From: Chiloscyllium plagiosum
Lineage: Eukaryota
Assembly (NCBI RefSeq): GCF_004010195.1
Contig: NC_057719.1
Span: 39,546,252-39,610,251 of the forward strand
Length of the DNA: 64,000 bases
Direction of reading: 5' to 3'
Under the pieces are notes generated by a model. That model was not told the DNA's origin, ran no database searches, and saw only the letters and a list, made by a program, of their open reading frames with translations. Below, one piece after another: positions 17,601-54,079 of the stretch (position 1 is its first letter; each line of letters starts with the position of its first letter). Position numbers and translations under genes: made by a program.

Positions 17601-20600
17601 GACTATGAGTAGCAACACAAGTGGTATTCACCCCCAACAGGATGCTGCCATAAAGACATTCTGCCTTCTACAAAGGAATAGTATGGTATATGAATTTTGA
17701 TGCTATTGTGGTGCAGGGTAGTTAGGTCATATGTCCCAAAAATTGGTGGTTGGTCATATCAAACACTATCCCTTCAGCTATTTGCAAGAAATAAAGTACC
17801 CAACCAGCCTGAGCTTATAAAACTCATAATGCAGTGTCCAACATTAGATGTAATTCTGCGATTCAACAACATTTGCTAAATAAGCCTCAGTGTGAGAAGA
17901 ATTAGATGGACAACTGATTTAGGGTTGTTAGTCAGGCATACAGTATTGCACACTTGTGTGCTCAGGAAACAACATTTGCAGGGCCCTGTTCTTTTCAGGC
18001 AGAAAGAAAATGTTCTTATCTTGCACTTGTTTCAATTCAATAAAGTAGATCCCAACCAATCTCTGGTTGATTTCTCATGTATGTCAATTGAAAGCTTTAT
18101 TTCATTAGAAAGAACTTATGAGACCAGGTGGTCTTTTGAGACTATTTTTAATGCCCAATATGTATGCAATAATATTAGAGCTTCAGTATTTATAAAAGAT
18201 ACTTTATTACTTTTCCAGTAATTGTTATATTCTTCTAATGCCTTGACCAATTAGCGTCAATCTTTCTGATTTAAAAATAAAACAAGGTTTGGCTGTTAAA
18301 TGTCAGTGGTCACTAACTAGTGCATTCTCCATGGCAACACCTCTACCAATTGGAGTCTACTTACCAGCCAAACAGTGCTACTTTATTCTATTCTATCAGT
18401 GTTGCTTTCCCTTTACTTTGGTGTTTCTTGTACCTTTTCCTGATGAGTGCAAGACAAAATGCTTTTTTTTTTAAACACTAAAGTCCTGTTCTACTGAACA
18501 ACTATTATTGTTACTTGGTATTTTTCTCACCCAAGTCAAATTTTCAACAATAGACAGTTTTCTTTATTAAGTTGTTTCGGTGAGTAGTTTTTCTGATGTT
18601 AGTTGATAATATTTTATTTCTCTAGAAAGAAATTTTGAGAACTGGTAGTCTACTCAGGAATATTTTTAATGTCCAATATGTTTTGCTACTACTTAATTAC
18701 ATACAAGTAACAGGTTTTTTTTAAAAACTGTATGCATTCTTGTAGCACTGCTCCAGGTCAGAGGACACCTGTGACCTCCACCCATAGTATCAGCAGCACA
18801 ACCACTCCTGACCGCCTGCGTTTCCCCAGAGGAACTGCCAGTCGCAGCACTTTCCATGGTGGCCAGCTTAGAGAACGACGAAATGCAACGTATAATGGAC
18901 CACCTGCATCTCCAACACTGTCTCACGATGCCACTCCCCTATCCCAAGCACGAAGCCGAGGTTCTACAAACCTCTTTAGTAAACTAACCTCAAAGCTCAC
19001 AAGAAGGTGAGTGTAATTGTAGGCTTTTGAATAAAGTTGCAAGGTGGTAACTTACATAAAACATATAGAGGTATATTTGACAATGATAGAGCTTGTAAAA
19101 ATATTTAACAGGCATCCATTCCAGTGATTGTATACTTGACAAATTTAGGTTGACGTTTTAATCATAACTTGAGCCTGAGCATACTACTGAATAGTAGTGA
19201 AAAATAATTATTACTGGTGTCACTCAAATATTGTCCCGTTAGGTTTATATTCTGGTTGGTTGAATTTGCTCATTTTCCAGAATTACCTATTGCACAATAT
19301 TGTTAGCATTAAACCTAAAACTTGCGATTTAATTTTTTTTAATGTCCTCAGTATTTCACACATTATCAGTGAATTGTGTTTCAAGTGTGGTCACCACTCT
19401 CATGTAGTTAATAGTGCAATCAGTTTGTGCAAAGAAATATTCTACATGCAACAATGAAAAAAAACATAGGAAGTAAGGCAGGAGTAAGATATTTAGTCCC
19501 TTGAACCTGGTCCATTAACATGATAGTTGATCTGATGTGACCTTAATTACTTTCCTCCCTGTCCCAATGTGACTGCAGATTCTGAGCAATCCTGTCTATC
19601 CATATGATCCAGCTCAGCCATATCAGCAGTAAGTTTTTGCAAATTAAATAGCTTTGGCTCAGTTATGAGCTAGACGCTGAGTTGCAGACACTGCTGCGTC
19701 AGAGACAAAGAAAGTTACATAGATACTTTGTTCCGGACTCCAACCACAAACCTTAAGATAGCATTTTCTTATTGGTCAAGAACAGGTGGGTGGACAGTTG
19801 TGAGTGAGGCAAGTATGAGGGTCGATAGGCAGCAGTGGATGAGCTTCAGCCTTTGCAATCTTTTTTGGTTGTAAGGACTTCAAGCCTAATATGTGGATGA
19901 AAGCAAGCTCTGCAACACAGATGATCAGACTGACTAAGACACCACAGTGCAGTATGCCATTCAAACAGGGCAAATTAATAGGGATGAAATGCTAGGAGGG
20001 AGCAGTGTAGTCAAGGGGATGAAACATTTCTGGAGTCATAAAGATTGAGGCTTCCTGCCTGAACTGCCCTCTCAGGCATAAGGACATATGCATCTATGAA
20101 CAAGAGTCCAAATGTCTGTGTTGCCAGCCTGATGCCAGGGCTTGGCACGTCTGCTGGCAGCTGAAGGGGCAGGATCCAGTTAGATACAAAAGACATAGAC
20201 CTAGGAGGAAGGTGTGCTGAATGAATATTAACAGCTAGTTGCTAAATTAAAAAACATTGTCTCAATGGTAATATCTCAGGATTACTACCACAGCCACTAA
20301 CAAATTGGTATAGGATAAATAACGTTAGAGGGTGAAATGGATGGCTGCAAGGTTGGTATGGGAGAAATTAGAGAATGAGGGCAAGCTAGTTAAAAAAATA
20401 TAAAAATAGACATTAAGAGTTTCTGCAAGTACTTAAAAGGGAAATATTAAATAAAGTGAACATAAAAAAAGTGGTTGCTGAGATTGTAGATACATTGGTT
20501 TTATTTTCCAGAATGCCTGGATTCTGGAAAGATCCCATTAAATTAGGAAGTAGTGAATGTGATTCAAGAAAGGAGGGGTATAGAAAGCTGGAAATTACAA

Positions 20601-26600: not shown

Positions 26601-29600
26601 ACGGTCCTGAAGACACACTATGAGCCTATCCTCTAGTCCAAACAATGTGAAGGCTTAAAGTCACCCACTTTAGGGCACTTTTCATCCAAGCCCCAGTTGT
26701 TTCTTGATGTTAATCTTGTCCTATTGTGTTGCTAATACTAGTGGGCATAAAACAACTCTCACCAATGACTTATTTCCTTTGTTGTTTTGTATCTCCACCC
26801 AAACTGATATTACGCCTTGACGTTCTGAACCAAGATTATTCTTAATAATGTCTCATCCTCTTTTAACAGAACTACCCCACCTCCTTTTCCATTCTTCCTT
26901 CCCTGCAGACAGTGGTGTAGTCATAGGTCAAGTAATCCAGAATGTCATAGGACTAGTAATGCAGAATTCCTGGTTAAAGTTTTGAATATCACAATGACAA
27001 GTGGTGAAATTTGAATTTAATAAAACAATCTGAAATAAAATGCTACTCATGTAGCACTGTCAGTTGCAATTTAAAAAACCCATCTAGTTCAACTTAGATT
27101 GTCTAGGGAAGAAAATACACCATCCATATCTGGCCTGCTCTACAATTTTATTCAATTGTGGGACATTGGTGTGAGAGCAGCCTCCTTGAACTACGTGACT
27201 CCAGCCCAGCACAATGTGGTTCACTCTTTACTGCCCTCTGAGTAATTAAGGATGATCAATAAATACTGGCCTAGCCAGAGATGCAAAATGATTTTTTTAA
27301 AATGTCAAATACGCTTTAATATTCAACTCCAGTCTTGTCAACCACGTCTTTGTAATGAGTTTTTAATATCATGCTCATTTATTTCTATTTGTGTTAAGAA
27401 TTCATTCATCCAATTATGAATGCTATGAGCAAGTAAGATACACAGCTTCAACTGCTTCTGCTTCCTCCTCTGCTGTGCACACTTATGTTTCTGTGCTCTC
27501 AACTTTCCTGTCAGACTCTACTTATCCTGCACTATTCCCTTGTATTTTCCCTTTAGCCTTTCAAATCTCCCCTTCACATGACACTTTGTCGCCATACTTT
27601 AATTGAACGCATTCTCACCTGAGATAATTATTCTATTTTTGATGTTGGTGATTGAAGAATAACTGTATGCTAAAATTTCAGAGAAGCTACCCTACATTAT
27701 AGGTTTTGGTTCAAAGTTTCCTCATAAGATGGGAATTTGTGACATTACAGCTTTCTTTCAGTACTGCACTGAAGTGTCAATTTAGGCATTGTGTATTCAA
27801 ATTCCTTGACCTGGACCTTTTAACCCCACAACCATCTGAGTCAGAAGCAGGAGTAGCACCACTGGATTAAGCTAATACTGTGTCAAGTTGCTGGTTAGGT
27901 GCAGTTAGTTTCATAATGATTTTTATTATTTCAGAACAAACTAGTTGTGTATGTCTGTAATTATTTTTGCACCTCAAGATGTGCATTATGGCCACTATTA
28001 TAATGTTTTGTTGCATTGCTGTAAACTTTAAAAACCATAATAACTTGATTGGGTGATTTGACAAATATTTTTCAAGCTCTATTGTACTATGGTTTATAGG
28101 TACTCTAGTCTTTGAATATGTTTGTATGTGCTCAGGCCTAAGTACAAAATAAGCTGCTTTTGAATTCCAATTTTTTTAACTCCTATTAATCATTTTTTGT
28201 ACCTTTGAATTAATCATGAGCAAATACAATCTCAGTTTCCATTATTATGCAATAAAGCTTTCTTGACAGGAAACCAGTGTAAGCAGGCATACGTTTAAGT
28301 TAGAAAAACAAGATAAATACCCCCTGAATCATAGTGAAGTATTCTTAACTGTCCAACGAAAATAAGATTCAGAAGTAGATATTCTGCCTGGTGATATAAC
28401 TCAACATAGAATAAATAAAACAAAATGATTTGGAGAAAATCAAAGCTATACTGGAGGTTACTTTGAATATTCTCTTTGTTGGGATGAGTTACTTTGTATT
28501 ACATTTTTAGCTATCTTCCAAGGTGACATTTATAAAATAGAAGTTGCAAGAAACTATTTATGACTGATGCATGTAATCTTGGAGGACTTCCAGCAGAAAA
28601 TTTGCACAATATGAAAATAGGTCTACTCTGTTGGGTTTTAATTAATGTGTCCATATGATTGTGGGTATATTTGAACTGTTGCATCTTTCACCTGTCACAG
28701 TTATCGAGTCATATTACATGCCACAAATTTGATCTGAGTTATTTATGGTCAAGAAATATATCTTAACAAATAGAATTGAACTGGTCCTGACTGGTCTGTT
28801 GGGTCAGTCAGAAATTTCTTTGTGACTGGACTCAGAATTTCAGCTGTAGCGAGGCCTCGTGCGCATTGTCATTTTGCTATGTCCTCTCCTCATACATCTT
28901 TCTTATCAGTACTGTGTGACAGCCATCAAACATGCAATTTTTTTGTATAACATATATGGGCTTTATTTACATTTTTTGCTTCTCATTTTTTTTTTAATTT
29001 AGAAACATGTCTTTCAGGTTTTCCAAAAGGTAGGATTTAAAATATAATTGGTTTGATCTGCAATATTACCAGAAACCTGGTTTCACAACCTTGATAACTC
29101 AATGACTTCCTGCTTATATAAAAAGGTTACCCATGGCTTACCTGGGAGATTGTATACTATTAAACCATTAATGATGATGGGAAGTGTTCTAATCTGGTTG
29201 TTTTAAACATATATACAGCTGTGCATGCTAACTACTTACTGTCATGTCAGATTCATTGCGATTAACCAAATTTTGATGGGATCATTTCATTATCTTACTA
29301 ATACACCAAGCATGATTGGGGTGTATGTTAAAGTTTCCTTAGTTGGAAAAAAAGCATGCTATAAAGCAACTATAAACTTTGAAAATAGCATTTGTTATGT
29401 AAAATGTGTTGGGCTGGGGAAGCAAATTCCCTGATTGCAGTTCTCTTGCTAGAAGTATGATTTAGGATTCAAATAGTGCGGAACAATTTGGATTTCTGTG
29501 GCAAGTGGCATAATGCTTTCTTCCAAATATCTTTTTCAGAATAGAGCTGATTTGCCATATCTTATGGAAAAGATTTTTATATTAGATGAAGGAACTTTTC

Positions 29601-32600: not shown

Positions 32601-35600
32601 CCCACAATGTTGTGCCGAACATTTGTCCTAGCTTAAGCACCTATCCATGTACCTATCCAATTGCCGCTTAAAGGTCACCAATGATTCTGACTCTGCCACT
32701 CCCAAAGGCAGCGCATTCCATGCCCCCACCACACTCTGGGTAAAGAACCACCCCTGACATCTCCCCTATACCTTCCACCCTTCACCTTAAATATATGTCC
32801 CCTTGTAACACTCTGTTGTACCCGGGGAAAAAGTCTCTGACTGTCTACTCTATCTATTCCCCTGATCATCTTATAAACCTCTATCAAGTCACCCCTCATC
32901 CTTCACCGTTCCAACGAGAAAAGGCCNNNNNNNNNNNNNNNNNNNNNNNNNNNNNNNNNNNNNNNNNNNNNNNNNNNNNNNNNNNNNNNNNNNNNNNNNN
33001 NNNNNNNNNNNNNNNNNNNNNNNNNNNNNNNNNNNNNNNNNNNNNNNNNNNNNNNNNNNNNNNNNNNNNNNNNNNNNNNNNNNNNNNNNNNNNNNNNNNN
33101 NNNNNNNNNNNNNNNNNNNNNNNNNNNNNNNNNNNNNNNNNNNNNNNNNNNNNNNNNNNNNNNNNNNNNNNNNNNNNNNNNNNNNNNNNNNNNNNNNNNN
33201 NNNNNNNNNNNNNNNNNNNNNNNNNNNNNNNNNNNNNNNNNNNNNNNNNNNNNNNNNNNNNNNNNNNNNNNNNNNNNNNNNNNNNNNNNNNNNNNNNNNN
33301 NNNNNNNNNNNNNNNNNNNNNNNNNNNNNNNNNNNNNNNNNNNNNNNNNNNNNNNNNNNNNNNNNNNNNNNNNNNNNNNNNNNNNNNNNNNNCTATCCCA
33401 TGCGTCCTGACTTTCCGCATAAGCCTACCATGGGGAATCTTATCAAATGCCTTACTAAATTCCATGTACACTACATCCACTGCTCTACCCTCTTCCACAT
33501 GCTTGGTCACCTCCTCGATGAATTCAATAAGACTTGTAAGGCAAGACCTCCCCTTCACAAATCCGTGCTGGCTGTCCCTAATCAGGCAGTGTCTTTCCAG
33601 ATACTCATAAATCCTATCTCTCAGTACCCTTTCCATTACTTTGCCTACCACCGAAGTAAGACTAACTGGCCTGTAATTCCCATGGTTATCCCTATTCCCT
33701 TTTTTGAACAGGGGCACAACATTCGCCACTCTCCAGTCTCCTGGTACCACCCCCGTTGACAGTGAAGACGAAATGATCACTGCCAACGGCTCTGCAATTT
33801 CCTCTCTTGCTTCCCACATAATCCTAGGATATATCCCGTCAGGCCCGGGGGACTTGTCTATCCTCAAGTTTTCAAAATGCCCAACACATCTTCCTTCCTA
33901 ACAAGTATTTCGTCTAGCTTACCAGTCTGTTTCATACTCTCCTCTTCAACAATACGGTCTCTCTCATTTGTAAATACTGAAGAAAAGTACTCATTCAAGA
34001 CCTCTCCTATCTCTTCCGACTCAATACACAGTCTCCCACTACTGTCCTTGATCGGACCTACCCTCGTTCTCGTGAGGCAACAGTACTAACCACTGTGCCA
34101 CCGTGCTGCCCATAAGGCTGTTACTGAGGCATTTTGTGCAAGATCACACCTCTTCATCTTATTTTCCTGTAGTGAGGTCAGTGGTACAGCCCAAGAGGTA
34201 GGCCTTGTCAATATAACTGACTTTTCCCAAACTCAGTGCTATAGACTGTATATACATCATGTTGAGAGTGTCATGTCATAGTGCATCTGAATTCATTAAG
34301 AGGTCAATGTCCAAGTTATCTTTGATCATAGCTATCACATCTTAAAGCTCTTTGACAGGTACTCTAGAATCTGCCATGATACCCATGTCTTTGTTAGCTG
34401 TCTGATTCCTGCTTATTTCAAAGGGCGGAATACTATAAAAGGATGGCTGCTCGAAGGACAGGCCTATCCTTTTTGCTGATGACTTCATTGCACACACCCC
34501 TGACTGATGGCATGTAGATTTATTGCAGCCAATTTGTTTCTCGCCATGTCCATTTTGGAACAGATGATAGGCCTTCTCAAGATGAGATTCAGGTTCTTCT
34601 GAGGACACAGGTGGCACTTGTAACATTTCACTGTAAATAAATATAACATCTGTAAATATATATTTGCTCTATAGATCATCACCTGTCTGATCAGTTGTCA
34701 TTTTAGCTCTTGGATCAAGAATCAAGTGACAAGGTGCTCTTCGTTAGTTCCCTTCAATACTAGAACCCTAAGGGAATGCTATTTTTTCCCTGTCTCCCAT
34801 CAGAACGTAATGTGTTGTCATAGTCAGAGATCTAAAACACAGAAAAAGGTCTTTTGACCCATCAAGTCTGCGGTAGTCAAAACAACCACGTAATTGTTCT
34901 AATCCTGTTTTCCAGCTCTTGGTCCATAGTCTTGCATGCCTTACATCACAAGTGTACATCTAAAATGCTTCTAAAATATTATGAGAGTTCTGTCTCTACA
35001 CTCTTACAGATAATGTGTTCCAGATTCCCAACAAGACTGACCCTGGAGGATCCCATCCATTCTTGCTCCAACCTGTCAACAATTTATAAAATATCCAGAT
35101 TCAGTGATTTACAGACCAGTCAGAGCTACATTTCAGAACATGTCTGCTTTCATTGGAAAAAATATCCATAATATTTTAATGCTCAAAATTTTAAAAAAAA
35201 ATTATTCAATCGGTACAAACTATTTCATTATCACTGATCAAAATTTCGTAGAACTGACAAAATAAGGGAACTAGCATTTTTCATATTTAAACTTTGGGAG
35301 TTAGCTTTTCTCAAGGTGACCAAAATCTTAAGAGCATTATAGCCAATGACTAAACTCTTGTTCATCAGCATTAAGAATTTCTTTCTATTCCTGTCTCTTG
35401 CATCTAAGTCACTATAGAATTTCATAAATAACCTTCAAATTTTCAGTATTTTTGTAAATTGTACTTTCTAAAACACAATGTAATTTTTTGCATACTTCAG
35501 TAAAATGTGCATTTCCACAATTAATTTCATTTTCTTGATACATTAAAATTTAGAAGTCCAAACATGAGGCAAAACAATACATTGAAGAATATTTTTTACA

Positions 35601-38600: not shown

Positions 38601-41600
38601 CCTTTATAAACTCCTTATGTCCTCTACACAACTCGCTTTCCTACCTATCCTTGTGTCGTCAGCAAGTTTAGCTGCCGTTATTTGAATCCCTTATTATACT
38701 ATATTTTCACTTTACACATTTAGGCTAAACTAATCAGTTGAAAGTCTGTCTCTCCACTAAAAGCTCTCCCCCTTAACTTCCCAAGGGAAATAAGTTTAGC
38801 GATTCCAACCAGTTTGTTATACTCCATTACCCCACACTACTCATAATTTGACTCCTGACTCAGAATAGCTGGTATTTAAAGTAAAAAGAATGAAACTGAT
38901 ATAGTAGAAGGTTATATTTTGAAAATGGGGATATAGTCCATGGTTAGAGTATTTTGAAGAGAGGAGACAATGCTATATCTGGTCATGTTGCTCTGCGGAG
39001 TGCTGGAAAGTACACAGTACACAAATAGGAAATATCTGCCTTTTCTAGGATATTTATCTTCCACTTTGAGCACATGATTCTTTTCTCATTACTTCCCTCT
39101 CCACACTCCCAAAAAAATCAGATTTGATAAATTGTTACAATCTGTAGTTTGTTTAAAAAAAAAAATTCTCCTGTCCATCCCTTTCTGCTTTGAAAAAACA
39201 ATCCTGGTTTGTAAATTATATGTCATCCTATCAAATGTTAAATATTTTAATAGATTTTTTGCCATCATAGACTCAGTACCTTGAAATAGCTTATACAATA
39301 TGCTAAAAATTATATGCAACCAATTTTTAATGTTTCTAAAATATGTCTATTCTTTTTTTAATGACTTCGAACCAGCAATACATCTGCAAATTTGGGTAAT
39401 CTCTTTCAAAATATTGCAGTTGTGTCCATCATTTAGTTTTCAATGACAAATATTTCTTACCTGACAGTAAATTATTTCGTTCACTGATTAGAATTGAAAG
39501 CCTACATCATTATGCCAAGAACCGTCAGCCCTCCATACCCTCCAACAACAAAAAGTAGTTAGATGCTATTACTGTTTTAAAGAAGTACTAAAGTGGAAAG
39601 GATTGATGCTGATAAAACTCATTAATGTAATTCATATAAATACATGCATTCCAACATAGCCCACTGTTTTGAGGAGCAATCCAGACAATGTGTTCCAATT
39701 CATCAGGGCAGTTGAGAATGTGGATTCATATTTTTTTTAAAAATCATGGAAATGGCTCGTATTAATGAAAATGATCAAATTTTCACATTGTATCACAAAA
39801 TCCACTGTTTCATTAGTGTCCAATAAGAATGTGTACCATCCTTATCCATTCTGACCTATATTTAAATCCAATTCCTGCAAACATGGCTGCATTCTTAAGT
39901 ATTCTAGTGTAAAACTCAATTACGTCAAACCACTAAAGAGTTCAATTACTTTCTTCTCAAGGCAAGTAAAGATGGGCAGTAAATGCTGACCTAGTTGGCA
40001 GTGCCCACATATCAAGTATTTGTTTCTTTTAAAATCAACCAAACACAGTGTCTTCCACAAGGAAGGAAAAGGAATGTATTTATATAATACTTCACATGTC
40101 CTCAGGAGACTCCAAACTATTTCACAGTCTTATTATTTTAAATTTAGGCAATTTTCTCACAAACAACACTGAAATCATCGACTAGTTAATCTGTCTTTTG
40201 GTGGTATCCGTTGCCTTTCAACCATTTAAAATGAAAATGAGGCAGAGAGGTAGTAGAAGTTCTGAGTGAAATACAAATGAGTTGGAAAGTAATAACAGTA
40301 TGCAAAATTCTGAACTTTTCTATAAGAATGAAGATAAAATTGTATCATCATTTGCACTTGATGGCAGAATCATTAGAAATGTTACATGTCTGCATCAGGT
40401 TTCCAAAATGATATAATGACTTTGTGTTTTGCCACCTGCTCCCTGTAATCTTGTATGTTTGTATTTAAATAATCAACTATTGCCACCTTTAATGCCTCAA
40501 TTGAATCTGCCTCCACTACACTTCCAGGCATTACATTCCAGATTCAAGCCAGTGTGAAAAAGTTCCTTCTCATATTAGTGACTTCTTTTGCAAATCATCA
40601 TAGCACTGCTGTATTACTCTTGACTTGCTTATGAGCAGGAACAGTTTCTGCCTGTCTGCACTGTCCAGACCTGTCATGATTTTGAAAACTTCAACCTAAT
40701 CTCCTCTTAGCCGCCTCCTCTCTAAGGAAACAGTGTCAACTTTTCCAATCTATCTTCATGACAGAAGTTTCTCATCCTTGGAACCATTTTTGTAAACCCC
40801 TCACACACTTTCCAAACTTCACATCCTTTCTAAATTTGGCACCCAGAACTGGGTATTTAATTTGTGGTATAACTACCTTTATATAGGTTCAGCATCCCAT
40901 TTATGCTATGCCGCTGTAAATATATCCTTGAATATTTTGTGCTTTATTAACCACCGCCTCCATCTGTTTTTCCATCTTTAATGATTTATGCACATATTGG
41001 CTCACCATGTTCTTTATACCATGTATATCATATATAGATAAATATGTGTACAATGCATTTCATGCAACTGCAGAATTTATCCTAAGATTCACTGTCTCAA
41101 TTATTTAGTTATGAGTAGTTTGATGCTACTGAGGTAGAGTGCAGTTATGTAGTTGTGTTCATCTTTGGTCAGTGATGAGAAAGTTGAGTTAATTGTTATT
41201 CTAATTTTGTTCTAAGTTGCTACAGTTGTAGGTAACAAAGTGGGAGCATCAGCACTTAATGTGCTAACATATGTCAGACTATATGTAGATTGATCTATAT
41301 GTGCAGTTTAATTCTCCAACATTTTTCCTCTTCTCAGGGTCACTATTGACCCATCAAAACGGCAGACTTCGAACAAATCAGTGCCCGCAAATACTCCTCC
41401 ACAAGGATCAAAGACTGTTAGTAAGTCTTCAGCCTCTAAATCTTTCCTCCTCTTGACATTTATTTCTGAAATACTTTCTTTGCGCACTTATAAAACTCTT
41501 TACGTTTAGAATTCCTTTTTTCTTCCAGATCTCAGATCCAAAGGACTTTTCCACTGTCTATTAAAATACTTACAGTAGTAAGTCAAAGATCAGTACTTTA

Positions 41601-44600
41601 GACACTGTAATTTATATTGAAATGTTTTAGACAGTACTAAGAAATTTCTGCTTTAGAATATTGTAACAGTTAGACTTAACACATAATCACAACATTTGCA
41701 TTTGAAAGCCTTGATGTGTTTTAAAGAGCTGGAATTCTTCCTTGCTGACATATCACTTTAGGATGAATTGAATGTTTCTCTGTTGAGAAACCATTTAACT
41801 TGCAATATATTGCTTGTTGGCACATTTTAAAAACTATTAGTCCTGAATGTGGACTAAAGGAAAATGTCTGTGTTCGGCTGTTAAGTGAAATGTAAGTTCA
41901 ATGCAATTGAGTAATAACTTCATGGTAGATAGGATAGTGAAAAAGGTATTTGGTGTGCTTGCCTCTATTGGTCAGTGCATTAAGCATAGGAGTTGGGTGG
42001 TCATGTTGCAGCTGTAGAGGATATTGGTTAGGCCACTTTTGGAATACTGCATGCAATTCTGGTCTCCCTGCTTTGGGTAGGATGTTGTGAAACTTGAAAA
42101 GGCTCAGAAAAGGTTTACAAGGATATTGTCAGGGTTGGGGGTTTTGAGCTACCAGGAGAGGCTGAATTGTCTGGGATTATTTTCCCTGGAGGCTGAGGGG
42201 TGACCTTATAGAGGTTTATTAAATCATGAAGGGCTCTGGTAGGGCAAACAAATAAGATCTTTTCCCTGGGGTGGGGGAATCCAAAACTAGAGGGCATATA
42301 GTTAAGGTGAGAGGGGAAAAATATAAAAGGGACCTAAGGGGCATTTTTTTTCACGCAGAGGGTGGTACGTGTATGGAATGAGCTGCCAGAATTGGTGGAG
42401 ATGTGCAATTACAATATTTAAAAGATATCAGGATGGGTATATGAATAGGAAGTGTTTAGAGGGATATAGGCCAAATGCTGGCAAATGGGACTAGATTTAT
42501 TTAGGATATCTGGTCCGAAGGGTTTGTTTCCATGCTGTACATCTCCTATGACTCTATAATTATTCAGGAAATCTTTCTGAAATCTGTGTTTATTTAAGGA
42601 GTATACTTTTAGTTTCTTTATAAAAATGCACTTCTACCATGCACGCACTGAAAGAGAATCTGACCCATGTAATCTGTTTTGGAAGGAAAAAAATACTGTA
42701 ACCTATCAACTGACTTGAAAATTGTTAGCACAAAATTAAGCAACAACTTTGCGTGTAAAACAGGTAGCTGTGTGCATCTAGAAACTGTACAGGAACTTCA
42801 GTCTTTATGACTCATCTCAGTTTTTGTTTTCTGTTAAGATTTAGATTTCCTATTTTCCCAGTGTAAAACTGGTGACTACTCCATTGTGTTTTTCAGTGAC
42901 TTGCATATGTGAAATAATAAATGACTGTGAGGTACACAGAAATCTTATCATTGAATGGACTATTTCAGATCTGCTGAGTATGTGGGATGTCCTGAAAATT
43001 TTTTTTGTTTCTCAAATTAATTTTGGCATTCAAATCTAATATTAAGCTGCAGTGCAGATTTATTGAGTCTATAGGAATATCAGCAATCCTTACATTTTTA
43101 TCTATGAGCCTGTGCATTGACTACAGTGTATCCTTTCTTAAAAATAATAACATGCACTTCCCTCAAAACATCATTGACAAATAGTATTCATTTAAGCCTG
43201 TTGAAAATGTATTTAGGTTAAAACTGCAAGTCAAATTACACTTCAGAAATTCCACACTATAACATTAATCCACATTGCTTTAAAATCAAATGATCCTTTT
43301 CTTTTTCCAACCTAGAATGTGACAAATTAAAATTTGGATTACAGGGGCTGCTTGTTAGCAAGTTTCATCTCGACCTCCGTAGCAAAGTTTTGTCTGTTGC
43401 TTTACTGATAGAAAAGGTGCTGCTGATGATGTTACAAAGAGTAAGGCTTGTAATGTCTTTTCATAAAAAGCTGGGGGAGTTCCTCATTCTTTGTGTAAAT
43501 TTACTCACTAAATCTCAGTGGCAAAGGCTTTGAAATAATTTTATCTTACTATGTTGATTTCACAGATAAAATAAGCATTTTGTCATTTTAAATGGAATCT
43601 CAGTGTATGCAGGAATCTAATTAGCCTAGTCATTGATTTGATTGTATAGTACTCTGAGAGAAAGTGAGGGCTGCAGATGCTGGAGATCAGAGCTGAAAAT
43701 GTGTTGCTGGAAAAGCGCAGCAGGTCAGGCTCTCCTTGGATGCTGCCTGACCTGCTGCGCTTTTCCAGCAACACATTTTCAGCTATAGTACTCTGAGACC
43801 ACAAGATATCTGAGAGATTTTATAGTATTATTTAATTCTAATTAAATTTGAGCTAGTTTTCCAAGAAGTGTTCTGTTTACATTACTATCTTATTAAGTTC
43901 TGAGATGACTGTATTCAATCAATTAAAAGTAGCCGTGCATAATTCGATAAAATTATTAGACTTCTAAACTTTGAGTTTTATTGTGTTTGGCTTTGGCAGC
44001 TGGTTGTATTTAATGTTAAGAATGATAGTGATATTAGATATAGGAAACAGGGCTTTCATTTCAACATTGTGCTTGGATGGAGAGGATTTGGGATAATATG
44101 TTGTTGCACAGATTATGTCATTGAATCTGATGACTTCTAAGTTAATTACCATACAGATCAGGCAACAGGTTTTTTTACAGCAACTTTTTCATTGCTATGG
44201 CAAATCAAGTTTTAACATGTTAGTTGTACATTAGCAAATGTAATGAATCTGCCGTGATTGTCTTAATTCCTGACGTGTTGTTATGGTTTACAGAAAGGAT
44301 TATCTGAGTAACATTGGGCAAATTATATTTCTTTCTCAATTCCTGTGTTAAAACCACTGAAATCCAAATATCCAAGATTTAATAGTTTATTTTGGAACCA
44401 ACATGTTTTGATTCATTTTTATCCCATGCTTATTTTTCAAGAGGAGAGTTTGGAAATGAAGCACCATATGAGTGATGCATTACCTTGAAATCTATGGATT
44501 TTTAGAGAAAATTAGTTCCAGAACGATTAGTGTTTTGCATGTGTTTTAAGCTTTAATTAGAACAACTGAGTTTGTTTTGTGTCTTTGATCTTTTATCTTC

Positions 44601-47600
44601 TCTTGCACTTTACCGGTGCTCACCTTAAGTAAGCTTCTCACTATTGTGTAGTTTTGAATTGTACAGGTTATTTGTTTGCATGATGTGTGTATGATTGGAA
44701 GCTATACAAATATATTATTCTTGGTGTACCAACTTCTAAATTATGTGCTAAGTCAAAGCAATGCTTCTATATACATAAGTGGACAAGAAGTCAGTTAAAA
44801 TAGGTTAATTTTTCAACAGGTGGAAGAAGTAAAACATTTGTTTGGCCAAACCAGAATTCTTGTAATCTCTTTGACCCAACTGTTTTCCATTATAAAAAGC
44901 AAGTGATCCTTGACTGTGTTCCCTGCCCAGCATTGACTCTCAACTTCCCAGTGACAAAAGTTCAGATCTCAAATATGATTTTGTATATGCAGCATTGCTT
45001 CTGGTCATCTCTGTAACTTTGTTTCTGCACTCTAGCTGCAAAATTCATCATTCCCTGACCCATCATCGACAACTTTTTGTCCCACTTTCTGGGATTCCCT
45101 CCAGTTCTGCATTAAGACCACAGCCCTCACACTTCCCGCCTCTCTCCTGTTTGGTGCCCCCTTTGCTCACTGATCATCTTGCTCACCATCTCCCTGCTCA
45201 TTGCTTTTTTCCCTAACATTTCTATTTGCAGCTCCTCTCACTGTCTCACTCAAGATCTCAGACGTAAAACAGGTGCAGGCGTGGGAGATGGTGGGCGAAA
45301 GAGAACCAGGGATGGGGTTGATTGGGGAGGTGGGGGTCAGCAAGCAGGAGGATCAGGAAGACATGGCCAGCAGGATTTAATTTTTATACAAAGAGTTAGC
45401 ATGTTGTGTCTATTTTTTAAAATTTATATTATTTTCAATATTATTTCATTTGCAAGAATGGAAATGTATGAATACATATTCGTTCAACTGAAAAGCGATA
45501 TTATATCTTAATGCTTTTTCTTCTGACAGGAAAGATCTTCTAAAACTTAACTACAGATTTTTACTTTGGTTCTGCTCGGAAAATCTGATTTGCTTTATGC
45601 GTTTCATTTAGCATTGCACTTTGCAGAAATGCAGCAAGGACTTTAAGCAAGGAATTACTGTCCAAATATTTTAGGCTTACACTCCCATCAATTTTGTTTA
45701 CCTTATTCCATCTTCCCTACAAAACACAAACATGATGACTTCTTCTTCAAACCACACCAGTTGAGGTTTGTAGAAAACAGTTCAGAAGGTTTCTCTTGTT
45801 GTAAGTGGCCTCTGCTCATGATAAAAGTGCAATTAGATAAAATCTTCTGCCATTGTAAGGAAATGCATGTTTCTGTCTGCATCAACATAAGTGATGAATT
45901 GGTTAGTCCTTGTGTGCAGTAGGTTATATAACACAAGCTTAAGAATTTTCTTCTTTCTTTAATTCCTTGTGCTTTCGGATTGCTTTCATTGAGGGTCCCA
46001 ACTGAACCTGAGAGAAACGGGAGATTTGAGGGCTCAAGGTGAGAATGCTTGTATGTTTAGTAGGTTTATGTCAATGCGACCAAATATTGCGCTATCAAAA
46101 ATGTTTTGTAGTCTCATTCCTGGAAAACATAATTTCAGGGAGTGTCGATACTTTTGATAAAGTTGTTGAAATATTGTTTGATATTTGATATATAGTAATA
46201 TGCGATATTGTAAGAATAATAACAGAGATTTTGAAATTGCAATATAGTTCTCTCAGTAGGTTTTAAATATTTTATTGTTAACATTGGTTAATTTATTTAA
46301 TACTTTTGGCCCAAAATTTGGGTCCCTTTTAGCACTTGAGCCCAAGATTCAAATTCGCTTTAGGTTGATTGTTTCGGGTGAAAGTTGTTTTTCATCCATT
46401 TGCTATCAGGAACGTATACCAAATTAGCCAATTTCAAAAGGGAGAGGCACGCTGAGCCAATCTATTCAAAGAGAAATGGTAATGTTTCAATCATGCTAAT
46501 GAGGATGAAGTATAAAAACTTGTATTTAAGCTATGGAAGGGTAGCAGAACTGTACAGCTGACTAATGCTATATTAGGCAATCTATGCGCCAACAATATAG
46601 GTGTCCAAATACTGTTTTCCATTTTGAAAACCTTTATCCTGATGCTGATTAGTTTACAATGATCTTATGTATAAGCTTTTTATTGATCAAGAAAGAACAA
46701 GCACTCCCACAACATACATTGTAAAATTCTTTTACAGAAAGTAGGTTAAATTTTCTGTGAAAAATAATCAAAAGGTGAGATAACTGCATGATGGATGCAG
46801 TCAACGCAATAATCAGAAAGACGTAAATTTAATTTTTGAAAATACTGTTATGGTACATGGCATAGGATTTGCCTGCTGAGAACATCAAGCTATCTGTTAT
46901 AATATTAGAATAGGTCCTTCCATCATACGATGTAACTGTTTATTAAATAGAATCGCAACAGTGCAGAAAGAGGCCATTCAGCCCATTGGGACCACGCCAA
47001 CACTCTGAAGAGCATCCCACCCAGACCCCCACCATATCCTGTAACCCCACATCTGCCTATGGCTAATCAACCGAGCCTATACATCCCTGAATACTAGAGA
47101 CAATTTCACCATGGCCAATTCACCTAACTTCCACTGTGGGAGAAAACCAGACCCCCCGGAGGAAACCCATACCAAAAAGGGGAGAATGTGCAAGCTCCAC
47201 ATAGACTGGAATCGAGGCTGGAATTTAACCTTGGTCCCTGGCGTTGTGAGACAGGAGTGCTTATCCCTAGATAGTTGAGGATGAAATTGGAGATTGATCA
47301 TTAGCTGCTTGACAGTTTGACCTGAACACAGTCATATATCCAGAATTTTACACATACCTAATTAGATTGCATAAAAGAAGCAAGCAATTGTAATGCATCC
47401 CCCAATTAGCTGTATACTGCCCACTGTGGACTCGATACTGAATCATGCTGCTCACTACTGCTTGGGAGCAGTTTATGGTACTTGTTGGTTGCCTACCAAG
47501 GGCTCAAACCACGATTTTCAGTTATCTGATCACCAACCAGCAATCCTCCTTGGAGGATAGTGAGAAATTTGGAGCAAGGACTTGTCTGCCAATGGGAGAT

Positions 47601-49671
47601 TGGAGCCAAGTGAATCTTCTCTGTACATACCTAATGCTCAATACCTGAGTCAAGCTGGTCAAGCCTTGCTCCATTGCAGTATTAGCAAGTGACTAGCAAA
47701 CTTAGATTTTCAACAACATGTTGAAAAGTGGATTTGCCACCAGCATGTAGGGCACTTCACCTCAGTTCCACTTAATTCTACAAACTGAAACCCTAAGTAA
47801 GGCTTGAGTAAACTGGATGAACAGTGGAAGGCAAGAAGGGTGTTCTGCAAGAAGGGTGCACAATTTTCGCTTGTTAAATTCTTGCACACTTGACTAACAC
47901 TATCTTTATCTGAGCTGAAAATGTGTTGCTGGAAAAGAGCAGCAAGTCAGGCAGCATCCAGGGAGCAGGAGAATCGACGTTTCGGGCATGAGCCCTTCTT
48001 CAGGAATCAGCCCTGAAGAAGGGCTCATGCCCGAAACGTCGATTCTCCTGCTCCTTGGATGCTGCCTGACCTGCTGCGCTTTTCCAACAACACATTTTCA
48101 GCTCTGATCTCCAGCATCTGCAGTCCTCACTTTCTCCTCCTAACACTATCTTTATACCATTCTTTTGATGTTTGGTAAGAAAGGGTGAATCCCTGAAATG
48201 AAAATTGACATCTCTATAACTTTCTCAACAATTTGGTTTGGAGAGGTTCTAAGATTATTATGGGTTTCTGTACATTTTAGATGGTAATGATAAAAAAATT
48301 ATTTTGGAACTTGTATCTTATTATTAAAAGCCCTTATTTTACTGCTATTTGAAACTTGCTAATATAATTTTTGCTCCATCTAACTTTCTAGTTTTTTTTT
48401 AATATGTTTTAACTGTGACTCGGAACACAATTCCACCTTATGGGCACAGCTGATTAGTCATTTTTTGCTTTTAAAATCTTTACACAAAAGACTAAAATGT
48501 TACTTGTTTAGAAAGATTATTGATTGACAGTTGGATATTACAAATCAATTGATGCAGAACTGCATTCCATTTTTTTATACATGAATCTGAGATTTTGCAT
48601 TAAATTTTACATTAGCAAATTAAACATTGGTGATATACTGCATATATAAAACCAAGATGGGCATCTGCAGATTGAAGTGTGCAGTTTGTTACACGTTTCT
48701 ACATTGCAATCCTGCAGAGATAGCTCCACGTCAAAGTGTTTCTTTTGAATTCATTTCCTCATGTTTTAATGTTAGGATATGCAAGCAGCATTCACTTTTG
48801 TCCCAGAAAAATCACACCATGCTAAGTTTGATAACATTCCCATGGCTGCAGCAGTTTTTATAAAATTGGCATTGCGCCATATTGGCGTTTGACATTCTTG
48901 CACAGAGCTCAAGTAGTGTCAGATGATCGTTGAGTTGGACTCCCGTTACTTAGCTTTTGCATGCTCAGATCACTGACTTTAGGTTATGTCACCACTTTCA
49001 ATATTTATCCAAAATCTTTTTGCAGTAAAAATGCAGCAATCCAAAAGTAACATTGCAGATTATGCTAAATTAATAAAGCATAATTCAAATTTCAGTTACA
49101 TGTTAAATAAAGTATCTGTTCATGTTTTAAGAGATCAGGTAAATTATTTTTCAGAAATATCACACTGCAGAGATTGAGAAACTAACTAACAACACAGGTT
49201 CGACTTCATGCATGCTTTTTGACAGACTGCATGTATTTATAAAATAGAGAACAAAAATAGAAGCAGCAGTGTGTAGTTCCATGTTCTGTTATTTGGCTGC
49301 TGAATTTTCTTTTTGTTTCCTGCAGTCGCAATGTATCTGGGGATCAAAAAGACGAAATCAAAGAAGCAAAGCCCCGTTCACTCCGATTTACCTGGAGTAT
49401 GAAAACGACCAGCTCCATGGATCCCAATGACATGATGAGAGAGATCCGAAAGGTTCTTGATGCAAACAATTGTGATTATGAACAGCGTGAGCGTTTCTTG
49501 CTCTTTTGTGTCCATGGCGATGGTCATGCAGAAAACCTTGTACAATGGGAGATGGAGGTCTGCAAACTGCCAAGACTGTCACTTAATGGAGTTCGTTTTA
49601 AGCGAATATCAGGAACATCCATAGCTTTTAAAAATATTGCTTCCAAAATTGCCAATGAATTAAGGCTGTAA
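2596..49671 (+). CDS. MARK3: MAP/microtubule affinity-regulating kinase 3, 3' portion (spliced; upstream exons lie outside the window)
   Basis: AG/GT-bounded exons join in consistent phase and give the kinase tail, UBA, spacer and KA1 domain. Peptides such as [16 protein letters not shown] and [15 protein letters not shown] match recalled MARK3 better than MARK1/2/4. Confidence 0.95.
2900..3445 (+). mobile_element. Old Penelope-like element 3' end
   Basis: Decayed endonuclease C-terminus-like coding ([13 protein letters not shown]...EHFIF) followed by the CACAGATGCT...TTTCAGATT terminal motif. Confidence 0.5.
4475..4720. mobile_element. Palindromic Penelope-terminus-like insertion within CR1
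   Basis: AATTGCTGGACAAGCTCAGCAGGTCTGGCAGCAT is inverted against ATGCTGCCAGACCTGCTGAGCTTTTCCAGCAATT, with an extra tail on the right. Confidence 0.7.
4938..5353. mobile_element. Non-autonomous Tc1/mariner (Tc2/pogo-like) DNA transposon
   Basis: Terminal inverted repeats ta|CCGTATATACTCTAGTAATAGTCG and CGGCTATCACTCGAGTATACACGC|tg; TA on the left flank. Confidence 0.7.
6061..6173 (+). CDS. MARK3: MARK3 exon, 113 nt (UBA domain)
   Basis: ttacag|AT...GAG|gtaag; (D)[37 protein letters not shown]; phase 1 to 0. Confidence 0.95.
6250..6525 (-). mobile_element. Deu-domain SINE relic (SacSINE1/AmnSINE1-like); similar relic near 27620-27880
   Basis: Reverse complement reads GAGTCAGAAGGTTGGGGTTCAAGCCCCA...TGCAGTATTGAGG...TTTCAGATGA. 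Confidence 0.55.
6933..7254 (-). mobile_element. tRNA-derived V-SINE (HE1-like)
   Basis: Reverse complement starts GGGCGGCACGGTGGCTCAGTGGTTAGCAC, has the V core GGGTTTCCTCCG...TCCCACAGTCCAAAGA and ends in (TCTAA)n. Confidence 0.88.
8718..9010 (+). mobile_element. HE1-like SINE, diverged
   Basis: GCACAGCGGCTCAGT head and ACACTGTAGGGATTCTATG tail. Confidence 0.75.
9625..12319. mobile_element. Inverted pair of Penelope-like 3' ends, left arm interrupted by CR1
   Basis: About 9668-11400 is the reverse complement of about 11450-12310. Both arms encode an endonuclease C-terminus ([25 protein letters not shown] and [23 protein letters not shown]). Candidate TSD CCTCATTA at 9617 and 12320. Confidence 0.8.
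10099..11109 (-). mobile_element. 5'-truncated CR1 LINE
   Basis: [16 protein letters not shown] and [11 protein letters not shown] motifs; AACAAAA duplicated at 10092-10098 and 11110-11116. Confidence 0.92.
12595..12751 (+). CDS. MARK3: MARK3 exon, 157 nt (spacer)
   Basis: ctctcag|TTGGAA...CATG|gtaag; [52 protein letters not shown]; phase 0 to 1. Confidence 0.95.
13068..13282 (+). CDS. MARK3: MARK3 exon, 215 nt (spacer)
   Basis: ttgaag|CTGGA...ACTAGT|gtaagt; (A)[26 protein letters not shown]...[16 protein letters not shown]; phase 1 to 0. Confidence 0.93.
14017..14120 (+). CDS. MARK3: MARK3 exon, 104 nt (MTRRNTY motif)
   Basis: tatcag|AATAAC...AACAG|gtaatt; [34 protein letters not shown]; phase 0 to 2. 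Confidence 0.95.
14536..14730 (+). CDS. MARK3: MARK3 probable cassette exon, 195 nt (RHQKSMS motif)
   Basis: cacag|CCTGACA...CCTAA|gtaagc; phase 2-2; (S)[13 protein letters not shown]...[33 protein letters not shown], resembling the SLTEM...RHQKSMS exon of MARK family members. Confidence 0.88.
15560..18460 (+). mobile_element. Degraded Penelope-like element (RT and GIY-YIG) with an inverted terminal copy
   Basis: About 16880-17800 reads [31 protein letters not shown] and MVYEF*CYC. The stretch from 15560 is an inverted copy of the terminal region ending at about 18460. CTGATGAGTGCAAG occurs at both ends. Confidence 0.7.
15856..16400 (-). mobile_element. CR1 3' end nested in the Penelope-like inverted arm
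   Basis: GTCATAGAGTCATA tail and the GAAACAGACCCTTCGGTCCAAC 3' UTR motif seen in other CR1 copies here. Confidence 0.8.
18746..19006 (+). CDS. MARK3: MARK3 exon, 261 nt (RSTFH motif)
   Basis: ttgtag|CACTG...AGAAG|gtgagt; [17 protein letters not shown]...[20 protein letters not shown]...[12 protein letters not shown]; phase 2-2. RSTFH is the known aPKC phosphorylation motif of PAR-1 kinases. Confidence 0.96.
20380..21200 (+). mobile_element. Highly degraded CR1 fragment
   Basis: Remnants of PQGSVL (CTGCCACAGGGATCTGTGCTA) and KFADD (AAATTCGTGATGAT). Confidence 0.5.
21230..22040 (+). mobile_element. Penelope-like 3' end: GIY-YIG endonuclease fragment and terminal repeat
   Basis: CKTCQH...[25 protein letters not shown], then a pyrimidine-rich UTR and a hammerhead-like core. 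Confidence 0.85.
21975..22001 (+). ncRNA. Minimal hammerhead ribozyme-like core
   Basis: CTGAAGA-A-GGGT-TAC-ACCC-GAAAC-GTT. Confidence 0.6.
22394..23030 (+). mobile_element. HE1-like SINE split by an antisense CR1 3' end (22678-22975)
   Basis: SINE head/core and tail flank a [11 protein letters not shown] fragment; AGTC duplicated at 22674 and 22976. Confidence 0.8.
23040..24560 (-). mobile_element. CR1 fragments (old RT piece and a younger 3' end at about 24165-24560)
   Basis: [37 protein letters not shown] tail. Confidence 0.7.
25120..25345 (+). mobile_element. tRNA-derived SINE, a further family
   Basis: A-box-like TAGCGCAGTTGG and B-box GGTTCAATTCC followed by non-tRNA body. Confidence 0.55.
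29003..29029 (+). CDS. MARK3: MARK3 27-nt microexon
   Basis: ttttaatttag|AAACATGTCTTTCAGGTTTTCCAAAAG|gtagga; (R)NMSFRFSK(R) versus recalled human RNMSFRFIKR; phase 2-2. Confidence 0.9.
32565..34071 (-). mobile_element. Young CR1 LINE, 5'-truncated, spanning a gap
   Basis: [14 protein letters not shown]...[13 protein letters not shown]...[13 protein letters not shown]. Confidence 0.92.
32927..33392. other. Assembly gap
   Basis: Run of N. Confidence 1.
34200..34690 (+). mobile_element. PIF/Harbinger transposase relic
   Basis: Frameshifted motifs in the expected order: [16 protein letters not shown](E)...[15 protein letters not shown]. Confidence 0.55.
35630..37805 (+). mobile_element. CR1/L2-group LINE of a second family with an embedded SINE (about 36990-37340)
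   Basis: [44 protein letters not shown]; tail GGGCAATAAAC...CACATCCCATGAGTGAATAAAA. Confidence 0.8.
37810..38670 (-). mobile_element. CR1 fragment
   Basis: Minus-strand [10 protein letters not shown]...DLGVLV. Confidence 0.75.
41338..41420 (+). CDS. MARK3: MARK3 frameshifting cassette exon, 83 nt, MARK4S-exon-like
   Basis: tttttcctcttctcag|GGTCACT...ACTGTTA|gtaagt; (R)[27 protein letters not shown]; phase 2 to 1; similar to recalled MARK4S RVTLDPSKRQNSNRCVSGASLPQGSKI. Confidence 0.85.
41925..42555 (+). mobile_element. CR1 3' end
   Basis: [15 protein letters not shown] and [26 protein letters not shown] tail. Confidence 0.85.
43660..43783. mobile_element. Short palindromic Penelope-terminus insertion, centre deleted
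   Basis: Inverted arms; TATAGTACTCTGAGA duplicated at 43645-43659 and 43784-43798. Confidence 0.85.
45994..46038 (+). CDS. MARK3: MARK3 45-nt exon, open in two frames
   Basis: ttcattgag|GGTCCC...TCAAG|gtgaga; main frame (R)[14 protein letters not shown]; alternative frame (R)[14 protein letters not shown]. Confidence 0.9.
46948..47265 (-). mobile_element. HE1-like SINE, diverged
   Basis: GGAGGAAACCC...GGGAGAATGTGCAAGCTCCACA core. Confidence 0.7.
47910..48139. mobile_element. Palindromic Penelope-terminus insertion with hammerhead cores on both strands
   Basis: About 95-bp near-perfect inverted arms around an AATCAGC spacer; CTAACACTATCTTTAT duplicated at 47894-47909 and 48140-48155. Confidence 0.88.
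48013..48040 (+). ncRNA. Minimal hammerhead ribozyme-like core (mirror copy on the minus strand at about 47976-48003)
   Basis: CTGAAGA-A-GGGC-TCAT-GCCC-GAAAC-GTC. Confidence 0.65.
49326..49671 (+). CDS. MARK3: MARK3 last coding exon (KA1 domain)
   Basis: tcctgcag|TCGCAAT; (S)[33 protein letters not shown]...[20 protein letters not shown] with TAA ending at 49671. Confidence 0.97.
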
Positions 49672-51133
49672 AATATGGCTAAGCTATAGTTTCAGGCGAC
49701 ATTTCATGAGTGTTTTTTTCTGAACACTGGTGGAAATTTATTGAAGAAAATGTATAGGATAATGCTTACGCAATAACTACTGCAATTTCAGATCATGGTA
49801 TTGGAAAACAGTGGAAATTCACAAGCTGCTGAGGGGATGGGGAAGTTGATCAAAGAATAGATTTTCTTTTTATAAAAGTGCACTACAGCAGTCAGTATCC
49901 TAATAACTGAACAGCTTGCCCCTTCATCTCAGTTACTTCACGTTTGTAATTGGCTTAGAGTCAGTTGCTTGTAAAACAAACTGGAAATGATTCATCCTGT
50001 GTAGGTATGATCCGTGTATGTATTAAAAAAATGTTCCAACAAAATCCTTCTCTTTAAAATGTTGTTGAATTGAGAGACCTGTTTTCAAACCTGTATATCT
50101 TCCACTGTTAGTACTGATTCAGGTGCTTAGCTTTTCAAAGACAACGAATTGTAAGAAACAAATAAACTCATTTTCCATCAGTTGTGTTTAATGGCCTTCT
50201 GACAATGGAGGTGTGTACCTATGAGCTAGTTGTTTCTGTAAAATATATTATAAAGCAAGAAATTCTGCTAATGGAAGAAACCTATCAGCTGTATTTAGGC
50301 CTGTGATGATATAAATTACCTGTGTTAAGCCAGGGGTGCTGTGATTTGGAAATGATTTAAGTACTGTAGATCACAGATGCTAAACCACACTTAGGATCTC
50401 TTTATTGTAGAAAATATCACCATCTAAGACTGTTCCTTAATCAATTAGGACATAAAATTATATGTTTATTGTTTGAGTTTCTTTACAGTAAAGCTTAGAT
50501 TGGAAACAGTTTTGTTCGGCCGTACTTTATTTAGCTGTAATTATTGTTAATAAGAATACAGTCTGTCCTCCACACATACTAGCTAAGTAAAAATGTCTTG
50601 AGTCTGTAATTTAACATTTGGCAGTATGGGACAATATTCATTTAAGTATGCGGTTTTTGTTTTTTTTCCAAACTATCAGCACTGTCCTTTGGAATGTAAA
50701 TAATGTAACTTAGTTTGCGGACAGTATCATACTGTTATACAGTTTTTTTTTCATTTTTTTAATGTTCTGTAATGAGCCAGGAGTTACAAATCAATGTAAG
50801 TTGTCAACATTTCAGGTTCACAACTCTTCATTAAAGGAAAAGAAACTAAAATGTATTTCTGAAATGTCACATATCAGTTTACTCACTGACAAATATGCAC
50901 ATAAATATATACACATATATACAATGTCTATCAGCCTATTAGCTATAAATATTTTATTCCTTGTATTTTTCCATTTTACACCAATGATTCCGTCCAAGTA
51001 TGTTGCTGTTTAGTCCACTAGCAACTAAGAATAGTATACACATGGATTGACATAAATCAAAACTAGTGAAATGGAAGGTCAAACCTTTTTGCTAAGTTTT
51101 TCCACTCATGTAATTCAAATACCAGAAAATAAA
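49672..51133 (+). other. MARK3: MARK3 3' UTR (end uncertain)
   Basis: AT-rich sequence with no recognisable repeats after the stop; candidate AATAAA at 50161-50166 and 51128-51133. Confidence 0.6.
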
Positions 51134-53000: not shown

Positions 53001-54079
53001 ATAAGAATTTGGACAAGGATTTCATTTTATTGAAAACCTGGTGGAGTAGTACAATTTTCTAATCTACGTGGTATGGAATAGGTTGTCTGAGGGAGAATTC
53101 CTCTCTTTCCACCTCCCTCCCCCCAAAATTGTTTCTTATCAAATATGTTTCCAGCTTTCCATCCTGTTAAGTACTTTGAGTAAATGCAGAACTCCTCCAA
53201 AAATGTGAACTCTGCCCAAGTTATGAACAAATTTCTTCACGCTAACTGAATTATTTTAAAAGTAGCCACTTTTTGCAACAATAATTTTAAAAGTCCTTCA
53301 AGCAATGACGTTTGACTATAGATAATTATAGCTGGTAAATGTGATGGCTTTGCACAGAATCTGAAAGCTAAAACTTTAAATGGAACCCCCTTAAATAGTT
53401 CTGAAAAGGGTAAATCTTTCCCTTCCTAGTTATCCATTTGTTGTTCATCTATTGAAAGTGACAGATTACCAATATAATATAAGCTAACTTTGTGGAACCT
53501 CCAGATTGCAGGTCAAATCTGGCTCAGTCTATGGTTTTAAAATCTCAGAATCAGAATTGTTATGGCAGGAAGAGGCCATTTGATCTATGGCACTCACACC
53601 ATTCTTCAAACGCGCATTGTTCCCTTGGGAAGTTTTACTGCTTTCTCTCCTTGCACATTCTTTCTATCCAAATAATCATCCAATGTCCTCTTGAATGCTG
53701 CAATTGAATCTGCCTCCACCACAATTCTAGGCAATGCATTCCATACCCTAAATAATTACTGAGTGTACAAGTTTTTTCTCATATCATCCTTGCTTCTTTT
53801 GCACATCTCTTTACATCTATACCATCTTGTTTCTTTTACGAGCAGGAAGCTTTCTCCTCTTTACTGTATCCAGCCAGCTCATGATTTTGAAAGCCTCAAT
53901 TAGATCTCCTTTCAGCCGCCTTCCTTCCAAGGGGGCCGGACTGAACCTTTACAATTTTTCCTCAACTGAGATTTCCCATTCCAGGAACCATTCTTTTCTT
54001 CGCTTCTGCACTCTCTAGTACATTTGCATCTTATCTAAAATGTAGCACTCGTGCTTTAATAATATTCATGGCATGCTAT

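Follow-up and report, generated by a model that had tools for sequence, protein, structure and literature searches.

The shark Chiloscyllium plagiosum very probably carries an ancient alternative-splicing switch at the C terminus of its MARK3 gene, inherited along with that of MARK4 from a common ancestor (we set the probability at about 0.88). On its plus strand, the DNA analyzed here (the window, 64,000 nucleotides of contig C10 in a 3.56-Gb genome) carries the 3′ portion, about half, of a gene for a MARK kinase. Pfam confirmed the MARK/PAR-1 architecture of kinase, UBA and KA1 domains (P0004, P0002). The features of the region, in window coordinates, are the following.

18746..19006, plus strand: constitutive exon, the last before the cassette block; phase 2 at its end; residues 530-617 of P0006 match at 100%.
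29003..29029, plus strand: frame-neutral 27-nt microexon, present in P0008, P0009 and P0012.
41338..41420, plus strand: cassette exon of 83 nt that shifts the frame and corresponds to the short-isoform exon of MARK4; 61 of 83 nt identical to the exon assigned to MARK4 at G000:C91520.
41421..41424, plus strand: four extra nucleotides that reach a second donor (GT at 41425), giving an 87-nt in-frame form with KA1; P0004, P0005, P0009, P0010, P0011 and P0289.
41529..41577, plus strand: 49-nt downstream exon candidate, a third, stop-containing end; when translated it gives the end of isoform X7 of Hemiscyllium (P0016), in one species only.
45994..46038, plus strand: 45-nt exon, read in two frames; MARK3 and MARK4 share 12/14 short-frame and 8/14 long-frame residues.
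49326..49402, plus strand: first part of the last exon, coding in two frames; the short frame ends here with TGA at 49400-49402.
49326..49671, plus strand: last coding exon in the long frame, with the KA1 domain (Pfam, E 3e-21); stop TAA at 49669-49671.

The first-pass annotation had described an 83-nt exon with a strong acceptor and a GTAAGT donor that is entered in phase 2 and left in phase 1, and both the splice anatomy and the translations agree with it. The acceptor is a pyrimidine tract plus CAG ending at 41337, and the donor GTAAGT follows 41420. The length, 83 nt, is 3n+2, so that entry in phase 2 (after 19006 or 29029) leads to exit in phase 1. The three cassettes allow eight combinations, each of which was translated: the four with the 83-nt exon end at the stop at 49400-49402, and the four that lack it run on to 49669-49671, after KA1. 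The tail of the short form comprises 68 residues and is basic (13 K/R, 4 D/E). It had been predicted letter for letter and equals the C terminus of RefSeq XP_043553435.1 (P0006, C. plagiosum isoform X14). Loss of KA1 from the exon-included form likewise stands, as the domain is recognized by Pfam in P0004 and the long last exon, but P0006 and P0016 give no KA1 match. As the TGA does lie in the last coding exon, junction-dependent NMD would be expected only with an intron in the 3′ UTR. Between species the length of the cassette exon varies in the alignment by one codon at two different places, leaving the downstream frame unchanged. What did not stand is the description of a two-way long/short switch: exon, frames and stops are as claimed, but the second donor yields a third state, in frame and with KA1. 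As a separate matter, the 49-nt exon candidate sits 108 nt past the cassette exon, and P0016 ends in a stop at its 3′ edge.

The KA1-less MARK3 isoform is already in RefSeq, as P0006. P0006 maps to the window in nine blocks, five of them at 100%, including all four around the switch; the other four match at 75-97%, probably because those blocks overrun exon ends. RefSeq MARK3a short isoforms such as XP_043553435.1, XP_014348402.1 (Latimeria X7) and XP_032882983.1 (Amblyraja X10) are the same isoform, with switch-flanking exons that match the window at 100%, but they are automatic models without functional comment. All the database isoforms are predicted models (XP_ accessions), which we take to rest on RNA-seq.

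With the exon peptide and its flanks as query, 10 of 12 candidates matched; every match is a MARK3 model of a shark or skate, and five of them lack KA1. The 68-residue tail gave 141 matches among 149 candidates; by manual count, the 120 listed comprise 83 named MARK3 or MARK3a, 30 named MARK4 and seven otherwise named. MARK3 short forms occur in sharks, a skate, Callorhinchus, Latimeria (88% identical), Acipenser, Amia, eels and many teleosts, and MARK4 short forms in sharks, a ray, Protopterus, Amia and teleosts. No tetrapod or cyclostome stands among the 120 tail matches listed. For tetrapods this blank does not show loss from MARK3, because human MARK4S (PMC9355243) is also absent from those 120. 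A further query for tetrapod MARK3, the last 40 residues of the coelacanth form, returned eight matches among 11 candidates, all fish, and is uninformative for tetrapods, since the word filter missed most teleosts. Tail HMMs run over 150 cluster representatives gave one clear and one partial match, both teleost, and no invertebrate or cyclostome tail, which is weak evidence because isoforms are merged in the clusters. Thus, neither the 120 tail matches listed nor the 150 representatives contain a short tail from outside the gnathostomes. The best ESM Atlas score, 0.80, is at chance level. Five MARK/PAR-1 representatives (P0139, P0147, P0148, P0157 and P0183) end a few residues past the same constitutive exon, without KA1; these may be alternative ends or truncated gene models, and some are probably from invertebrates.

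The locus is MARK3, because of its position in the tree and its eIF5-family and creatine kinase neighbors; this is the orthology that the first-pass annotation had assumed. The genome contains four KA1 last exons, on C10 (the MARK3 locus), C9, C45 and C41. The exons on C41 are 85-93% identical to Stegostoma MARK4 in most blocks, which places a separate MARK4 locus there. C9 and C45 would be MARK1 and MARK2, respectively, as assigned by similarity rather than by tree. In a tree built from 29 proteins truncated ahead of the tail, with no MARK1 row among them, the 10 MARK4 rows form a clade at 100/100 that excludes P0006, and MARK3 plus MARK4 exclude MARK2 at 96/96; the 13 MARK3 rows themselves group weakly, at 65/71. 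The human gene order is EIF5-MARK3-CKB. On C10, an eIF5/eIF2B-family match lies upstream, at 39.394 Mb, and creatine kinase matches lie downstream on the minus strand, at 39.652-39.659 Mb; the synteny match is thus at the level of the creatine kinase family. A creatine kinase gene is found near the last exon at three of the four MARK loci (C9:39669683-39671784, C10:39652328-39658971 and C41:6351756-6355108), and no creatine kinase match was seen near the C45 locus. This arrangement beside three MARK loci fits paralogy by whole-genome duplication.

These data bear on the idea that the exon came late into shark MARK3, by gene conversion or transfer from MARK4, or that the locus is itself a MARK4 duplicate. 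The tails of shark MARK3 and MARK4 are 72-78% identical, and the weak MARK3 grouping in the full-length tree could be read the same way. However, the MARK4 clade leaves P0006 out at full support, the flanking eIF5-family and creatine kinase genes are in place on C10, and MARK4 has its own locus on C41. Moreover, when 23 tails are placed in a tree, those of MARK3 and MARK4 separate at 100/97 across sharks and bony fish, and tails that sort by paralog imply that each was inherited with its gene. Late entry is thereby largely refuted, and we give it next to no weight. Inheritance of the switch from the MARK3/MARK4 ancestor, as the first-pass annotation had proposed, is what the shared exon, phase and donor and the tail tree support.

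The sole other match to the cassette exon in the genome is on the unplaced contig C91520 (83 nt, 61 identical, with the same acceptor phase and donor). Judged by its sequence, this contig appears to belong to the MARK4 locus of C41, where the assembly is broken. The 45-nt exon and last exon of MARK4 are on C41, and in the short frame they yield the MARK4 tail. The MARK4 locus itself looks misassembled (G000:C41:6351756-6425351 plus C91520): its last exon and 45-nt exon have minus-strand orientation and lie upstream of the kinase exons, which are on the plus strand; its cassette exon is on the unplaced 10-kb contig. The homology that had been suspected with the MARK4 short-isoform exon holds against shark, ray, lungfish, bowfin and teleost MARK4, human MARK4S being outside this comparison. 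In human MARK4, the short form MARK4S includes exon 16 and the long form MARK4L skips it (PMC9355243). The two switches correspond in having a homologous cassette exon at the same position and in the same phase, whose inclusion moves translation into another frame, so that KA1 is lost and a homologous tail takes its place. They differ in that the shark switch sits in MARK3, with a tail four residues longer in the last exon.

By HMM and DNA alignment, no homolog of the cassette exon was found in the 11.5-kb MARK1 interval, which has no N, nor in the 35-kb MARK2 interval, where 2,190 N keep the absence from being firm. The same DNA alignment recovered the 45-nt exons of MARK1 and MARK2 above shuffled controls. 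An HMM of the exon peptide scored 62 bits at the cassette exon, 53 bits at the MARK4 locus and at most 9.3 bits elsewhere in six regions; since the profile includes shark sequences, the two high scores are partly by construction, and the blank at MARK1 and MARK2 is the informative part. The MARK1 short frame is closed in the shark by a stop at codon 2 of the 45-nt exon. That of MARK2 (G000:C45, near 350499 and 356905) is open but unconserved through the 45-nt and last exons. MARK2 also has the 27-nt microexon, for which no match was seen in MARK1 on C9.

Is the short frame merely open, or is it maintained? In the 45-nt exon, the short frame gives 12/14 residues identical between MARK3 and MARK4, against 8/14 for the long frame, and over the first nine codons of the last exon seven and five residues, respectively, are identical. 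The corresponding 45-nt exon values against MARK3 are 3/14 (short) and 4/14 (long) for MARK1, and 5/14 and 6/14 for MARK2. Long-frame third positions differ between MARK3 and MARK4 in four of 26 codons of the dual region versus 54 of 87 in the KA1-only part (Fisher p 3e-5), in a test on one pair of paralog sequences; a 12-nt deletion in MARK4 may have thrown the final few of these 26 codons out of register, which can only add differences. Because conservation between these paralogs is higher in the short frame than in the long frame, we read the short frame as being under selection, with a constraint stronger than that on the long frame, from this one MARK3/MARK4 sequence pair. The position of the stop was rejected as a sign of selection in MARK3, since it is imposed by the long frame: an identical TGA overlies conserved Met-Lys codons in MARK1 and MARK2. 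Shark MARK4 keeps the stop position as TAA over Ile-Lys.

That the stop is largely fixed by the long frame would also suit unproductive splicing, in which the exon mainly lowers the amount of full-length MARK3 and the tail is idle, open as a by-product of the long frame. The MARK2 short frame, open over the same exons and not conserved, and the one model (P0016) that uses a further stop-containing exon point the same way. The cassette exon, however, codes in a single frame, and even so its peptide has been conserved, both from chimaera to teleosts and in MARK4; the short frame downstream is the better conserved of the two between paralogs; and the stop is in the last coding exon. Unproductive splicing is accordingly improbable as the main role, though it is the strongest of the competing accounts, and a conserved coding switch remains the preferred reading.

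The third splice state arises from the GT at 41425, four nucleotides past the first donor, which extends the exon to 87 nt, keeps the frame and KA1, and adds a 29-residue insert. In six models, each from a different shark species, two extra residues follow the exon, after which translation continues in the long frame and KA1 is retained. No in-frame 87-nt model was seen outside sharks, with a query that contained the extra residues and so favored such models. The first 10 intron bases (window 41421-41430; L009 8641-8650) are identical in shark MARK3 and MARK4, four beyond what the consensus needs. The first donor fits the consensus in full; the second is weak. The donor consensus itself is described as having a GT four bases farther on built into it (PMC1779574). 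As with the donors four bases apart treated there (GT at +1 and +5), use of the second donor changes the frame, but in MARK3 the shift restores the frame rather than breaking it.

The in-frame form could conceivably be the main job of the exon, as an insert of 29 residues before KA1, with the frameshifted form secondary. The second donor is, after all, used by six shark models, and the four extra bases together with the donor are identical in shark MARK3 and MARK4. Against this, the first donor is the strong one, the GT four bases on comes with the donor consensus (PMC1779574), and the short-frame constraint farther downstream cannot come from an in-frame form. Moreover, 122 of 136 tallied proteins are short-frame without KA1 as opposed to six in frame, a ratio that is not a frequency, since the searches were aimed at the short tail. 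We consider a primary role for the 87-nt form very unlikely, and keep the frameshifted form as the main product of the exon.

The second donor may be tolerated noise. The odds that the 87-nt form is a real minor isoform are about even, and those that its use is regulated are below even. A fuller proposal, for which we would offer only about one chance in four, is that a three-state switch has operated since the MARK3/MARK4 duplication: skipping would give KA1, the first donor a dedicated targeting tail with a short helix and a basic patch, and the second donor KA1 plus the 29-residue insert, with donor choice regulated. It would be specific to MARK3 and MARK4, not MARK1, and tetrapod MARK3 may have lost or silenced it while MARK4 kept it.

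The mechanism that we favor for the switch would run as follows. When the exon is skipped, a long kinase ending in KA1 is made. Inclusion through the first donor (83 nt) switches the 45-nt exon to the second frame, together with 77 nt at the start of the last exon; the stop of this frame lies in that exon, some 270 nt short of the long-frame stop. The short product keeps kinase, UBA and spacer and exchanges KA1 for the 68-residue basic tail, whose core is conserved, and the second donor (87 nt) would give a minor long form with the 29-residue insert. Inclusion would be regulated and is probably neural for the most part, by analogy with human MARK4. The KA1 domain mediates membrane binding, CLASP1/2 binding and kinase autoinhibition (PMC6890249). 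The short kinase might thus escape autoinhibition and the KA1-dependent binding of CLASP and phospholipid, and be placed by its own tail. In this way the switch may toggle membrane binding and autoinhibition in MARK3, as the first-pass annotation had it. However, MARK2 without the last 45 residues of KA1 stayed membrane-bound, and truncations left substrate phosphorylation unchanged (PMC6890249); in Drosophila Par-1, deletion of KA1 was without effect on axis formation (PMC8791603). From these results, loss of KA1 may change less than expected. An AlphaFold model of the short form was unusable (mean pLDDT 37, with even the kinase domain failing), and its low-confidence helix at 656-663 was set aside.

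A search of read runs with the last exon and 3′ UTR listed none on record as RNA. Read data were inspected over 41200-49500 in four of the 24 runs listed. Among the joints listed, with a further 224 beyond the listing, there was none at the cassette exon, the joint and loose-end tables being swamped by repeats. Run X11 covered the introns evenly, in a DNA-like manner. Two hints, not counted as evidence, are a contig of X1 that starts exactly at 45994, and mean depths of 0.31 and 0.12 in two exon bins of X19, equivalent to some 85 and 33 letters and compatible with a single spliced read. The case for transcription is carried by the predicted database models and by conservation. For human MARK4, the dual-coding region is reported to be selected in both frames and brain-specific (10.64898/2026.05.28.727796), and brain-specific frame use has been described separately (10.64898/2026.02.24.707805).

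The pre-duplication ancestry of the region has been largely anticipated by a preprint of May 2026 (Tress et al. 2026, bioRxiv 10.64898/2026.05.28.727796), which reports a dual-coding region in MARK1, MARK3 and MARK4 that is preserved across chordates and predates the duplication, as one of at least 13 families that gained such regions before duplicating. The main text of that preprint names neither the exon nor the second donor. It also differs from our data in that shark MARK1 is without the exon and has its short frame closed; either the MARK1 region of the preprint is another event, or it was lost in this shark lineage. No paper on a MARK3 short isoform or on the second donor was found in the literature searched, the coverage of which leaves out most subscription journals. 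What is added here is the second donor, with an in-frame, KA1-keeping form in six shark species, and the paralog contrast given by the closed short frame of shark MARK1. MARK4S is usually treated as a peculiarity of MARK4, and a matching MARK3 form is present in sharks, coelacanth and ray-finned fish. The tail would then be a functional module about as old as jawed vertebrates, not a truncation, and the role of a KA1-less MARK becomes testable in fish.

Some minor features of the window may be recorded. It includes three N runs, 1,077 bases in total. An AATAAA at 50161-50166, about 490 nt past the long-frame stop, is a possible polyadenylation signal. Degenerate LINE-like reverse-transcriptase frames lie in the introns and downstream, at 289-675, 10192-11140, 32896-33897 and 53945-55786; presumably these fragments are CR1-like.
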